The notes under the pieces were generated by a model that saw only the letters and a list, made by a program, of their open reading frames with translations, searched no databases and was not told where the DNA came from. A DNA stretch of 64,000 nt from Eledone cirrhosa. Taxonomy: Eukaryota. Positions within the stretch are counted from its first letter, which is position 1. Each line of letters opens with the position of its first letter. Below, piece after piece: positions 7,661 to 62,501 of the stretch. The stretch covers positions 275,466,001 through 275,530,000 of the forward strand of contig OZ024743.1 in NCBI GenBank assembly GCA_964016885.1, in the 5' to 3' direction. The translations under genes were made by a program, and so were the position numbers.

Positions 7661-7878
7661 GAGAGTTCAAAAGGTGTGTAGGGGAGTGGTAAAGACAAAG
7701 TGTGGGAAGGTGTGTAAAGTTCGGAGAAAGGTCACGGCGGATTAGATCGGGTAGGAGGTGAGTTTTATTGTAGTACAATAAAGCAATGCAGATATCGGAT
7801 AAGAAGCACTCTACAGTTTGTGGGACTGGAGTATACATAATATATAAGAACAAAAGATGGTTAAAGGAGTTCCATGTA

Positions 7879-7945
7879 TTTTATTATGCGCATTTCAAAA
7901 ACAAATATCATCATGCAATAATATTTGTGTTTTCATCAGATAAAA
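7879..7945 (-). ncRNA. Type I hammerhead motif (inverted twin of 8037-8103)
   Basis: Reverse complement of the + copy within the 7837-8143 fold-back. Confidence 0.8.
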
Positions 7946-8036
7946 CAGGAGGACATGATATGAAGGCTAAAAAACATGTTGATTTAAAACTGCACTATTC
8001 ACAAGTGTTTTTTAGCCTTCATATCATGTCCTCCTG

Positions 8037-8103
8037 TTTTATCTGATGAAAACACAAATATTATTGCATGATGATATTTGTTTTTGAAATGCGCATAATA
8101 AAA
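8037..8103 (+). ncRNA. Type I hammerhead motif
   Basis: ttttat-CTGATGA-[~14-bp stem II]-GAAA-TGCGCA(palindrome)-TA-ataaaa. Confidence 0.85.
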
Positions 8104-8473
8104 TACATGGAACTCCTTTAACCATCTTTTGTTCTTATATATTATATATATATATATATATATATATATATATATATATATATATATATATATACTTACA
8201 CATGCACACGAACTACTGACCAAATAATGTTTGGTATCAATGGGTTAAAGACATCTGTCAAATAAATTAGTGGTGAAGGTGGTGTATATATATATATATA
8301 TATATATATAAACATAACCATACATATACATATATATATATGAATGTATATATGTATAGTATATTTGGCAATATACCGTATGTTTAATTAAAAACATTTT
8401 GAAGACCATACGCTATCGGTTTTAAAGTAGTGACTATGTCACTTACTTCTTTTCGGCGAAAGAAGGGAGAGAA

Positions 8474-8513
8474 GCTAACAGTCTGTTTCACGCTGTTTGG
8501 CGATCATCAGAGC
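8474..8513 (-). ncRNA. Type I hammerhead motif
   Basis: Minus strand: gct-CTGATGA-tCGCcaaacaGCGt-GAAA-CAGaCTG-TT-agc, inside a longer outer hairpin ~8451-8537. Confidence 0.8.
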
Positions 8514-8939
8514 CACGCACTCCTGCTTCCGCCGAATATATATATATATATATAGGAAAAAGTATGACCCCGACGGCAGAGCTCAAGCCGTTTCGACGGC
8601 TATTTCTGGACTAAATTAGAATTTTCAGCCTGGTATATATATATATATATATATATATATATATATATATATATATATATATATATATATATATATATAT
8701 ATATATATATATATATGAGTTCGTAGCACGTGGCTTGAATTCTTATCAGAGTTCAACGACCTGCGCATGTATTGTTTTTGGCGGTAGTCTCCTTCCTCCT
8801 ATTTTCGCTATTTTCGGGACAGTGTGAGATTTTCTTTAGAACTGCTGGACTAACAACCTAGCAGCTCCCTCAAGCACTGATGGTGATTATCGCTAAATAT
8901 TGATGTTGATTTGGTTATCAATATTAATATTATTGGGCA

Positions 8940-9062
8940 CCCACTGAAGAATTATAAGAGCCCACTTGAATAAGTATCTGTTGATCTTATACAAGCTTCT
9001 ACATAACTTGGTATATTTTCACCCAACTTGTAGAAATCTTATAATGAAACGAGTCGTCTGGG
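8940..9062 (+). ncRNA. Type I hammerhead motif with ~95-nt branched stem II
   Basis: ccca-CTGAAGA-ATTATAAGA...TCTTATAAT-GAAA-CGAgTCG-TC-tggg; stems I and II pair perfectly. Confidence 0.85.
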
Positions 9063-58756: not shown

Positions 58757-58861
58757 AATAGGGTTTTATAAAGATAGCTTCCATTTATTAATATTATTGA
58801 TATATATATATATATATATATATATATATATATATTCATTTATTATGGCTTTTGGTGACCT

Positions 58862-58907
58862 TTGTTACTCTAAAGTTTCACCTGCTCACTCACAGGATCA
58901 TCAGTAT
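58862..58907 (-). ncRNA. Hammerhead core in a fold-back (~58833-58968), stem I lost at the inversion point
   Basis: Minus strand: CTGATGA-tCCTG..CAGGt-GAAA-CTTtaGAG-TA. Confidence 0.6.
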
Positions 58908-59889
58908 TGTCTGGTGAGTACGCAGGTGAGACTCCAGAGTAACAAGGCTTAGCCATAATAAATGAATATTTAAACTCTACTTCGGTATTGTGTTTTCATT
59001 CTCACGTCCGTCAATTATTCACGTACTCTCAGGTCTTGAATAATCGTCCCCACCTACCGCTTATTAATTTGTCAGAATGTTTCCACCACCCCACGGGTTT
59101 TATTCTACCCAACCCCACCGGTTTATTAAATTTGCTAATCTACCTCCGGTGAAAATTTTATTGAAAGTGATTCATATTGATACAGCAACTGGAGTATCTA
59201 ATAATTGTTTCTACTTTTTGGCACAAGGTTAGCAATTATCCAGTGTATTACTGGTACTTTATTTTATCGACCCCGTAAGGATGAAAGGCAAAATTAACCT
59301 CGGCGGGATTTGAACTCAGAATGGAGTGTCGAATAATAATTTTATTTTATATTAAAAAAACATTATATATGACAAAAGAAGAACATTACAAGAAATCCCA
59401 TATTTACGAACGTACACTATATAATTACTGATTTCACAAGCCCCCACCCCAACTCCCATTATTGCCACCCCTCCTATTATTTGGGACCCCAGACTGCTAC
59501 CAAACTCTCCTCCTCTCTATGACTAGCACACAAAATTCTCTTTTAATCCCCCTCTCTATATCTACTAAATCCAAACTCTACCCCTCTCTATAGCTACCTC
59601 GACACCACTTCTCTTATCCCACTCTCTATATTTTAAGACTAATACATTCTCTCACTCTCTATAAATATCTACACTTATATCTTCCAATCCCCCTCTGTAT
59701 AGCAATCACCCCTAAACTCTCACCCTCTCTATATTTACTACACGGCACTCTCCCATTATCCCCCCCCCCCTGTATATCTACAACCACCAAATTCTCCCCC
59801 TCTCTATATGTACCTTACAACACTCTCCTCCAATGCCCCTCTCTATATCCGTAAAAATCAATATCCCCCTCTCTCTCTCTCTCTCTCTC

Positions 59890-60681
59890 TCTATATATAT
59901 ATATATATATATATATATATATATATATATATAAAACTGAAGTTGTCTCTGTGTGTGTGTGTGTCCTAATTTTGGCAAAGTCTATACAAATCCACATTTC
60001 TACACCGATTGACTTCAAACTTGCATTTATATATTCCTTGCGGTCTAAAGATATTAACTGCAGCTTTTATTTTTCAATTTTCTGTTGTTAAAGGCGTTTT
60101 TTTCACTAAAACTTTAAGCCCTTTTTGTCAGCAATTTTGTCTACAATGTTCAAGAGAGACAACTCTTTACTATTTTGAAAGAGTTACCTCTCTTTATAGA
60201 CTCTATTATCCCTACTTAAACGTACATCCTTTGGAATTGTTGATGGTGACCCCAATAGTAACTCTGAAGCGTTTGGCATCCGATATAACAGTTCGGTCTA
60301 TATCAGATTGGGTAGATTTTTGTAACCTTAAAAGTATCCAACTAAATTCCTCCATGCTCTCCACCACTGCAGTCCCACATGCTTACTGCTCTGTAACTAT
60401 TGCTTTCATTGTACCATAGCACAACAAATACATGTTCGGTTTGTCGAATGCTTTTTTACTTAACCCTATTGTCTTGGCTTTCGTGGGTTGAACATTTTAC
60501 TCTCACGCACCCAATTAAGTTAAACCTCTGGTAATCTACGACACATTTTTTTATAAGCACAACATGTAGACACCATCCCCAGGCCGAGGTATTCCGTACT
60601 TCTCTGTACTGTTTCAGAAAGGAGGGATAAACATGCCAATCTATGTTTAGAAGCCCGAGCAACGCCGGGCCATTCTGCTAG
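59890..60681 (+). mobile_element. Non-autonomous Helitron
   Basis: TC(TA)n..AAAACTGAAG..(GT)n start; 3' hairpin CCCGaGCaacGCCGGG then CTAG|T. Confidence 0.75.
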
Positions 60682-60944
60682 TATGTATATATATATATAT
60701 ATATATATATATATATATATATATATATATATATTAGAAAGTGAGGTTTTTTTTACAAAATGAAAAAAAAACGAGGTGTCCTACACGAGTGAAAGTATAA
60801 GGAAAAAAGACGAAATCGAAAATGCAACTGGAGTCTTTTTTTTATAAAAATATATATTTATTTGGTTCCTTTACCGGACCCGGAGTACTTCTAGTTTTCA
60901 AAAGTAGAATTGAGATGGAGGGTTTGTGGTTTTATATATATATA

Positions 60945-62297
60945 TCTAAAATTAAGTATGTGTGTGTGTGTGTGTGTGTGTATTACCTATAGGGGCCTAC
61001 ATCTTACGACCGATTTTCATGAAACTTTACAGGCTCATAGATTAGTTATCGGGGAGTGTTTTCTTTATATCAGCGTATGTTTTTTTTTTGTTTTTTTTTA
61101 TTCCTGGGTCATTCTGCAGATAAAAATCGATAGGGGGGTCGCCTTTTTTTAGGTATCGAAAAATAAGATTTTTGGCACTAGCTCCCACATTTTGCCACCG
61201 ATTTCGTTCAAATTTTAAAGCAAAATAGAATTTATCATTGCACATCCTTTATATTTTGCATTCGTTGTTCAGGGACGGCGTGGCAGCCGCTTAAATATTC
61301 AAAAATACTACTTTTCGACTCAAATTTCCACTTTTTCGGCTCCCACATTAATCAGCCTACTTTGTTCAATTTTTACACTACGCTAGATCTGATTATTTCA
61401 CGTCTTAAAGTGGCTTTACATTTTGGATTGTTTGTTCAGGAACGGCGTGGCAGCCGCTTAAATATTCGAAAATACCACCTATTCGCTCAAATTTCCGCCT
61501 TTGCGGCTCTAACTCCCACATTTTTCAATCGATTTCGTTCAAATTCGAAACTTCGGCTCCACCTCAAACATAACTCAATTTATTTGGTTCAACTTTTATA
61601 CTACGATAGAACCTATCATTGCACATCTTATAATAGCTTTACACTTTGCATTTTTGGTTCAGGGACGGCAACCTATCATTAGCTCCCACATTATTCAACC
61701 GATTTCGTTCAAATTCGAAACTTCGGCTCCACCTCACACATAAATCAATTTATTTGGTTCAACTTTTATACTTCGATAGAACCTATCATTGCACATCTTA
61801 TAGATGGTCAAAGGCAAAATGATGGCCACTGACGTCGTCTGAGCTTTTAGTTGTGTATTTGAGAATTCATCGGTTTCCAATCAAGTAGAGTGAGGAAATT
61901 TGGCTTAGTCTTAGAGGTCATTACCTCCCTCCCCCAGCATGCCCCTTCGTCAGTCACCCGCGTTTCTCAGTGATAGAGGTCATCACCACCCTCCCCCGCA
62001 TGGCCTGTGTGTGGCCATAGATGAGTCATCGAGAAGCAGTCGCTAAGATCAACAACTTTTCATCAAAACAGATATTATTTTATGGCAGTATGGGTAGAGG
62101 GTCGGACGCCATGCTTTCTAGCATAGTTACGTCCCTTTAGAGTCTGAGTTCAAATCCCGCCGAGGTTAACTTTGCCTTTCATCCTTACGGGGTCGATAAA
62201 ATAAAGTACCAGTAATGTACTGGGTGATTGCTGGCCTTGTGCCTAAAGTAGAAACAATTATTTTACCTACCCAGCCAACGCTGGGTACTGCTGCTAG
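60945..62297 (+). mobile_element. Non-autonomous Helitron with internal repeats and nested SINE (62083-62258)
   Basis: A|TC start, 3' hairpin CCCAGCcaacGCTGGG, CTAG|T. Confidence 0.75.
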
Positions 62298-62388
62298 TAT
62301 ATATATATATATATATATATGTGTGTGTGTGTGTGTGTGTGTGTGTGTATATATATATATATATATATATATATATATATATATATAT

Positions 62389-62501
62389 AGGAACCGGTAA
62401 GACCCCGACGGCTGAGCTCAAGCCGTTTCGACGGCTAATTCTGGACTGAATTAGCCGTCGAAACGGCTTGAGCTCAGCCGTCGGGGTCTTACCGGTTCCT
62501 A
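62389..62501. repeat. Perfect ~54-bp-arm palindrome containing hammerhead 3' halves
   Basis: 6-nt loop TGGACT; GAAA-CGGC..GCCG-TC on each strand; same family at 8555-8610 and 11230-11353. Confidence 0.9.

Follow-up and report, generated by a model that had tools for sequence, protein, structure and literature searches.

Head-to-head fusions of Penelope-like element ends in Eledone cirrhosa join a short to a long outer end, probably through twin priming at two RNA sites

Inverted copies of pseudo-long terminal repeats (pLTRs) have been described for Penelope-like elements (PLEs) that carry an endonuclease. Passages of PMC3846280 call the head-to-head arrangement "the most frequently observed" and propose that it arises by self-priming on an antisense template; the rotifer inverted pLTRs described there have ordinary target duplications of 8-10 bp. 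Passages of PMC8557442 describe an inverted 5' copy with a tail often at one end only, ascribed to resolution by the endonuclease, and section 11 of that paper reports that the Hydra clade inserts in (TA)n and lists its RWK-like, DKT, CxCx5C, and C-terminal endonuclease features. In these parts, both papers call the origin of the inverted repeats and of the one-sided tail unresolved. According to passages of PMC11167929, both strands of AT-rich DNA are cut and extended by an anole Penelope protein, a predicted dimer, which initiates at two internal positions of the RNA, at the two boundaries of the tail, and needs no hammerhead cleavage. Twin priming and dual priming are defined for the L1 retrotransposon in passages of PMC2837659. 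The literature that we searched held no proposal of twin priming for PLEs, with the limit that subscription papers (e.g., Arkhipova 2006; Evgen'ev and Arkhipova 2005) lie outside that search and may discuss it. Here, we analyze fold-back insertions in a 64,000-nucleotide stretch of the Eledone cirrhosa genome (contig OZ024743.1, positions 275,466,001 to 275,530,000; "the window") and in further sampled parts of that genome.

We conclude that these insertions are PLE 3' ends, i.e., pLTRs with hammerhead motifs, joined head to head. Their polarity is fixed, and each family has a short (S) and a long (L) outer end of its own, with near-obligate S/L pairing; the arms can be non-nested or disjoint, and the junctions are specific to each locus. 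The fusions are probably made by twin priming at two sites of the sense RNA, one short and one long, a reading to which we give a probability of roughly 0.65. An earlier note on this DNA had suggested a PLE origin, which holds, with two families now tied to open reading frames (ORFs). It had also listed eight inverted pairs with the hammerhead-sense strand minus on the left arm and plus on the right; direct inspection of the window recovered all eight at the listed positions, with that polarity in 8/8, the evidence for orientation varying among pairs (hammerhead motif, homology, family votes, upstream ORF, or eye; Table 1). The listed intervals cover the duplicated part but are incomplete, as one arm extends into a family-specific tail in seven of the eight pairs. 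The tail is on exactly one arm in those seven, the exception being the pair at 11528, in which the right arm is cut off.

The polarity is not confined to the window. We sampled 80 stretches of 10 kb, grouped as 16 blocks of 50 kb (800 kb) at positions picked blind, two of the blocks lying near the window. A de novo search returned 199 inverted-repeat entries in blocks plus window. With overlaps merged and entries holding (TA)n in the spacer dropped, the 16 blocks contain 111 distinct fused inverted repeats, comprising 47 head-to-head, 2 tail-to-tail, and 62 unorientable cases. Head-to-head fusion thus accounts for 47/49 orientable repeats (p = 2e-12), and the tally that the earlier note had proposed, head-to-head against tail-to-tail beyond the window, comes out in favor of its polarity. 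Neither of the two exceptions adjoins (TA)n, and their orientation comes from three votes and one vote. Opposite-strand pairs less than 1 kb apart in the match tables of families A, D, E, and F, read by eye and with some loci duplicated, are minus-then-plus in 37/37. The entries with (TA)n in the spacer include five head-to-head, two tail-to-tail, and one ambiguous; tail-to-tail pairs across an array, such as that at L204, are expected from separate insertions into one microsatellite. A scan for hammerheads found 116 motifs in blocks plus window, versus 9 in shuffles.

One arm abuts (TA)n and the other carries a tail of 25-200 nt in 36 of the 47 head-to-head block insertions; four cases scored as symmetric are two S/L fusions with a TA-rich tail start, one L/L, and one compound. 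An inverted, head-to-head 5' copy and an optional one-ended tail, both features of endonuclease-bearing PLEs, are present here. The polarity that the earlier note had flagged is already published, together with the one-sided tail, PMC3846280 naming head-to-head the most frequent arrangement in the passages cited above. The polarity is by itself ordinary, and the added value lies in the S/L rule with disjoint arms.

That rule emerges from arm-only queries for families A, D, E, and F, for each of which the best 30 of 40 scored candidate loci were taken (120 loci, or 109 distinct after removal of 11 duplicates). A genome search with family B gave no locus, the window copy included, and is uninformative. 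The locus script sought inverted arms on the 5' side only, so these counts are no test of polarity. Queries that contain a palindrome center (a first set for family C and another palindrome query) favor palindromes and were for that reason left out of the polarity and S/L counts. Each family has two sharp outer ends, L lying 44-164 nt beyond S (97 nt in A, 80 in C, 94 in D, 164 in E, and 44 in F). An inverted arm is present at 65 of the 109 loci, 43 are single copies, and 1 is unplaced. The single copies end at S in 27 cases and at L in 16. The inverted loci divide into 46 S/L, 3 S/S, 3 L/L, and 13 with one end unassigned, so that S/L makes up 46/52 palindromes in which both ends are assignable (p = 5e-9 against independent choice, under which S/L would make up about half). 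Palindromes and single, sense-primed copies share the same short end. Family C was requeried by its tail, which fixes one end as long and rules out disjoint arms; the 29 loci obtained comprise 26 S/L (23 by script and 3 with very short arms by eye), 1 L/L, and 2 single copies. The proposal of the earlier note that both arms are primed from the same RNA 3' end fails here, because 46/52 assignable palindromes combine a short and a long end, with only three S/S and three L/L.

The insertions sit in (TA)n arrays, which mask target-site duplications. The symmetry of (TA)n had been put forward as the cause of the palindromes. The short end, however, shares only about 1-5 nt with (TA)n (by eye), the rotifer inverted pLTRs in the passages of PMC3846280 have ordinary duplications of 8-10 bp, and an S/L insertion at one locus (L021) lies between (ATC)n runs. 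(TA)n is targeted, yet insertion does not require it. A possible cue lies in the tails themselves. A motif chosen after looking at them, RCTC within 18 nt of the short end with a later GAGY, occurs in 13/27 tail clusters, compared with none on the reverse strand and 0.4 for shuffles (at most 3 in 2,000). It may be a shared cue, a candidate stem to which the protein would bind and by which internal initiation would be positioned; no structure common to the tails emerged when they were folded singly.

The relation between the two arms bears most directly on mechanism. Among the 46 S/L pairs, 21 have a short arm that extends further toward the 5' end, 6 have disjoint arms (L006, L268, L075, L080, L081, and L097), 7 have level arms, and 12 are nested. 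In 27/46, therefore, each arm holds sequence absent from the other, the short arm extending 5' of the long arm by 5 nt or more. An inverted segment from an internal RNA site that is no copy of the other arm, as in twin priming, is what these 6 disjoint and 21 further non-nested pairs contain, a pattern that later deletion could mimic. In family A, 8/11 such short arms start at the 5' hotspot of the single copies, the long arm being the truncated one, and therefore resemble primary cDNAs. In family C, the loop falls on either arm and the center differs from locus to locus. Junctions have small overlaps or fillers (gaps of -18 to +77 nt), overlaps of 1-6 nt being common. The two arms of one insertion also share non-majority bases more often, per column, than do arms of different insertions: 0.0066 versus 0.0012 in A, 0.0106 versus 0.0023 in D, 0.0043 versus 0.0004 in E, 0.0175 versus 0.0014 in F, and 0.0045 versus 0.0005 in the center-query set of C, with 0 versus 0 in its tail-query set. 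In five of the six sets, sharing of rare bases is thus about 5-12 times higher within one insertion.

Priming from both target ends, as the earlier note had it, remains the best mechanism, only not from the same RNA end; its version is nearest to dual priming, or to a variant with both primers in the same tail (PMC2837659, passages cited). We envisage that a GIY-YIG endonuclease would cut both strands within (TA)n and that both cut ends would prime reverse transcription on one sense RNA at two initiation sites. One reaction would start at the short site, where (TA)n may give 1-5 nt of pairing (by eye), and proceed toward the RNA 5' end. The second would start at the long site, 44-164 nt downstream, and copy the tail; were it to stall near the short site, the arms would be disjoint, and were it to displace the first cDNA and copy the same RNA again, they would overlap. 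The two cDNA 3' ends would then be joined through short microhomology or with filler, and host repair would supply the second strands. Single copies would result when just one end primes productively.

Several observations weigh against this reading. The 12 nested and 7 level pairs are equally explained by fold-back, and family D is reversed, with 8 nested versus 3 non-nested. Palindrome centers are prone to later asymmetric deletion, which can mimic non-nesting. The centers of family C cluster on a natural hairpin (stem II), as self-priming predicts. About 8/65 inverted copies (L010, L018, L027, L028, L029, L066, L111, and L277) have a short 5'-derived inverted piece that reaches neither site, and these are probably better read as products of snap-back. 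The rare-base tally includes a few spurious alignments, gene conversion could be another source of shared variants, and two RNAs from one source would look the same as a single RNA. Finally, the locus-specific center of the pair at 14572 is uncovered in the independent short-read and reduced-representation runs described below (depth of about 0 at 14806-14826).

The alternative that these points favor is snap-back of a single cDNA, in which reverse transcription would prime at the long site, the cDNA 3' end would fold and copy itself as far as the short site and join the other target end, and later central deletions would make the arms non-nested. It yields the same polarity and is in keeping with the common 1-6 nt overlaps as well as with the nested pairs and hairpin-centered fusions just listed. 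We nevertheless consider it unlikely. If one cDNA simply folded back, one arm should lie within the other, which is not so in 27/46 pairs, 6 of them disjoint; the loop of family C falls on either arm; short arms at the 5' hotspot, in 8/11 non-nested cases of family A, are unexpected of a fold-back copy; and copying would need to stop exactly at the end used by single copies.

Dual priming on two RNAs, proposed for L1 in the passages of PMC2837659, would have an asymmetric protein dimer hold two transcripts, its subunits starting at the short and the long site, respectively. Overlapping arms would then form without strand displacement, the rare L/L and S/S cases would be covered, and the arms at L025, which differ at 13/150 columns, would be readily understood. 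Two free RNAs, however, predict about half S/S or L/L, versus 6/52 observed, and rare bases are common to the two arms of one insertion more often than to unrelated copies; this model seems to us similarly unlikely. Still less can be said for the published scheme, in which self-priming on an antisense transcript (PMC3846280) is followed by endonuclease resolution that leaves the tail at one end (PMC8557442, passages cited for both). It was devised for the same polarity and accounts for palindromes at the junction. However, the short end of the palindromes is the end of single sense-primed copies, sense RNA suffices in vitro and both ends match the start sites of reverse transcription (PMC11167929, as cited), and antisense 3' ends would have to coincide with the 5' hotspot. 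We rate its chance as low. The in vitro data in those passages of PMC11167929 fit two-site twin priming on sense RNA.

Independent data came from seven runs (short-read contigs and reduced-representation reads). At the family C element, (TA)n immediately follows the short end (2,300-2,700 reads per sample) as well as the long end in the raw reduced-representation reads from three samples. Head-to-head joints are supported by 55, 61, and 77 raw reads in runs X5, X6, and X7 at one joint, in each run from a single start. Nine of the 15 family C joints listed (60 more are unlisted), mostly from X2 contigs, link the inverted core to a position within the tail, i.e., have disjoint arms. The family E element and its (TA)n junctions are likewise present in independent runs. 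An artefact of assembly or of fold-back in the library is largely refuted, and we give it next to no chance. Identical arms in three of the eight window pairs and the center at 14572, which the other, short-read runs did not show, would be in line with it. Against it, arms stop at family-fixed sites, flanks are unmirrored, each locus has its own center, with fillers, the arms of most pairs mismatch at 1-5%, and three other samples have head-to-head joints in their raw reads. The argument from mismatches that the earlier note had made applies to five of the eight pairs and is limited to these because the other three have identical arms.

We further propose, tentatively and at somewhat less than even odds, that two-ended priming is the normal integration route of endonuclease-bearing PLEs. 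A dimer on a conserved stem at the tail start would prime both halves of a double-strand cut on one RNA, at two sites that bound the tail, with no second-strand step of its own. The inverted pLTR, the one-sided tail, and the two start sites found in vitro would then be one phenomenon, common to Hydra-clade, Penelope/Poseidon-type, and retrozyme-like families, to which this genome might owe roughly 100,000 palindromes. The last figure is a rough extrapolation of the density of 47 per 800 kb to 3.0 Gb, giving roughly 10^5. The S/L rule and the disjoint arms favor two-site twin priming over the published antisense self-priming; they predict that loss of one start site in the existing in vitro system would abolish inverted products. 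Such elements are a large source of short palindromes, with relevance to genome stability and to repeat annotation, as they resemble miniature inverted-repeat transposable elements (MITEs) or microRNA hairpins.

Seven families (A to G) make up the window pairs, and type I hammerhead motifs were scanned by core and stems, partial copies being oriented through family members. The predicted cores are canonical in A, B, and D, of the U3-A8 type in the parents of C and in E, and altered in F; that of G was read by eye. U3-A8 replaces the C3-G8 core at 14860, 14731, and 19618 of the window and at L225-L227, and these copies are missed by Rfam and by a canonical-core scan; we presume that this core may be active in families C and E. 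No hammerhead family was matched in Rfam, in which there were only microsatellite-driven matches of microRNA type, below threshold. The family A copy at L022 is continuous upstream with the C-terminal endonuclease region of an ORF whose family carries RWR, DKT, and CxCx5C motifs, and L022 matches the ORF at L141 (tblastn E = 2e-28). RWK-like and DKT motifs, a CxCx5C linker, a C-terminal endonuclease, and (TA)n targets are present for ORFs of the L141, L157, and L193 region, the GIY-YIG Pfam match in these Hydra-like ORFs being weak and below the cut-off (E = 0.006). Motifs, rather than a tree, putatively place family A in the Hydra clade. Family F runs upstream, at L103, into a reverse transcriptase ORF (RVT_1 E = 6e-12), with an endonuclease-like motif read by eye from the DNA; we take this ORF to be of Penelope/Poseidon type. 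The sense of the ORF equals that of the hammerhead in both families, which is therefore an independent check on orientation. A PLE-type reverse transcriptase and GIY-YIG ORF upstream of the pLTR and in hammerhead sense was thus found for 2/7 families (A and F), with B, C, D, E, and G showing no connection to any ORF. Family E consists of tandem units of 590 nt.

Most family A copies (L007, L022, L026, and others) start at one 5' hotspot within a TCACT-like motif, which passages of PMC3846280 describe as an initiator-like sequence of rotifer pLTRs; the hotspot is possibly a transcription start. A cap-derived extra G at this hotspot was considered and dropped, as it is seen in 3/13 occurrences and is not convincing. 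The window also contains a decayed Hydra-like PLE ORF fragment on the plus strand (23946-24543; tblastn E = 2e-18), with a hammerhead-like motif at 24756 and a (TA)n array just downstream. A third PLE-like ORF family with C-terminal GIY-YIG-type motifs occurs at L135:6674-7828 and L196:4925-5854, its 3' ends resembling window 20278-20739 by eye.

Table 1. Fold-back insertions and associated features of the window. Arm identities use boundaries redefined here; hammerhead motifs of the pairs at 7837, 13909, and 14572 are from a structural scan.
Feature	Pair	Coordinates	Strand	Arms, tail, and flanks	Arm identity	Hammerhead or other basis of orientation; remarks
Family B palindrome	7837	7751..8142		left arm minus, tail ~89 nt (7751-7839); right arm plus, short site against (TA)26	137/137	complete type I hammerhead motif, both arms; tail matches that of a copy in the L134-L135 region
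Family C relative	11230	11151..11351		left arm with 80-nt tail 11151-11230, right arm short; (TA)n both sides	42/50	oriented via homology to 62389
Family D	11528	11458..11658		left arm minus, short end 11458; right arm 27 nt (11632-11658); no long end visible	27/27	complete hammerhead motif, left arm only
Repeat adjoining family D right arm		11667-11864		follows the right arm		
Family A palindrome (Hydra-clade pLTR, putative)	13909	13910..14332		left arm short; right arm long, tail 14235-14332	154/158	complete type I hammerhead motif, both arms
Family E palindrome (590-nt tandem unit, retrozyme-like)	14572	14407..15018		left arm long, tail 14407-14572; right arm short; 52-nt spacer is part of the left arm	195/197	U3-A8 hammerhead core variant, both arms
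Single non-inverted family E copy		19462..19986	-	between (TA)12 runs		shows family sense and short end
Family F palindrome (Penelope/Poseidon-type pLTR, presumed)	30445	30403..30908		left arm long, tail ~30403-30450; right arm short	182/185	oriented via family votes and upstream ORF
Foreign filler at family F inversion junction		30642..30713	+	72 nt		70/72 identical to 31731-31802
Family G palindrome	58833	58836..59075		left arm short against (TA)17; right arm into tail from 58966; long end not defined	33/39	oriented by eye from family members
Family C palindrome	62389	62390..62579		left arm short; right arm long, tail 62500-62579; (TA)n both sides	51/51	3' half of hammerhead only, 5' half present in parent copies L225-L227; center within stem II hairpin
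RCTC ... GAGY examples		14235-14270, 62500-62535, 7800-7839		just downstream of short end		

The filler at the family F junction has a counterpart about 1 kb away, inside an ORF fragment (31420-32016; no Pfam match) that we take, from its motifs, to be non-LTR-like. This counterpart ties as the best match of the filler (40 scored of 275 candidates), which suggests that the filler may have been copied from local DNA in end joining.

Further inverted repeats of the window are absent from the earlier listing and are not oriented by hammerhead (9260-9497, 20278-20739, 15957-16039, 10525-10838, and 58036-58087); in the first two, one arm abuts (TA)n and the other carries a tail of about 60 nt, the pattern of the listed pairs. 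An unoriented pair at 19316-20219 (122-nt arms, 99%, right tail of about 77 nt) has its center split by (TA)12 runs and the single family E copy. A separate class of inverted repeat is represented by L134 (block offset 33916-34799) and L183 (21280-22164), terminal-inverted-repeat elements with a mariner-like look, flanked by TA in (TA)n, and at least 2 of the 62 unorientable fused repeats resemble terminal-repeat DNA transposons in (TA)n. We rejected a MITE or terminal-inverted-repeat transposon as the identity of the fold-back families, which have asymmetric ends, centers varying per locus, and single-arm copies. Elsewhere in the window are three tandem, diverged copies of a two-ORF non-LTR retrotransposon (34409-48500), in which the ORF2 scanned has endonuclease, reverse transcriptase, and zf-RVT domains and one copy has open frames of 643 and 1150 aa; an abundant dispersed repeat of about 190 nt, the size of a short interspersed element, in at least 10 places (11667-11864, 22133-22317, 51703-52212, 55434-55629, 62083-62266, and others); and long tandem arrays at 32555-34329 (units of about 25-50 nt) and 28327-29200 (degenerate and CAC-rich).

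Compared with the endonuclease-bearing PLEs in the cited passages of PMC3846280 and PMC8557442, the insertions described here are alike in head-to-head 5' fusion, a tail at one end, a hammerhead motif in the pLTR, and (TA)n targeting. They differ in that the tails are 44-164 nt long, versus 30-40 bp in published cases, and most copies are short and ORF-less. Strict S/L pairing and disjoint arms appear to be unstated in those passages. With respect to the Hydra clade (PMC8557442, section 11), families B, C, D, E, and G lack an ORF tie and F is tied to a Penelope/Poseidon-type ORF. Family E resembles the non-LTR retrozymes described in passages of a preprint (bioRxiv 10.64898/2026.07.22.740005), in that its 590-nt tandem unit bears a hammerhead-like motif of type I and has no visible ORF; the main text of the preprint, in those passages, is without palindromic insertions, whereas family E has S/L palindromes like those of the pLTR families.

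The Anolis Poseidon element PAc, as studied in vitro (PMC11167929, passages cited), offers two internal starts of reverse transcription that bound the tail, cutting and extension of both strands, a predicted dimer, and dispensable hammerhead cleavage. Those passages draw no link to inverted pLTRs, and the families here are known from sequence only. L1 twin and dual priming, as given in the cited passages of PMC2837659, share with our families the priming by both target ends, outer ends that lie toward the RNA 3' end, and internal joining of the cDNAs with or without microhomology. In contrast to L1 twin priming, the second site here is fixed and not opportunistic, there is no poly(A), and the arms usually overlap (40/46 S/L pairs, versus the non-overlapping arms of the L1 type), a stretch of RNA being copied twice. 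Inversion is, moreover, a major outcome (65/109 loci), and the process works like twin priming but not in its L1 form.

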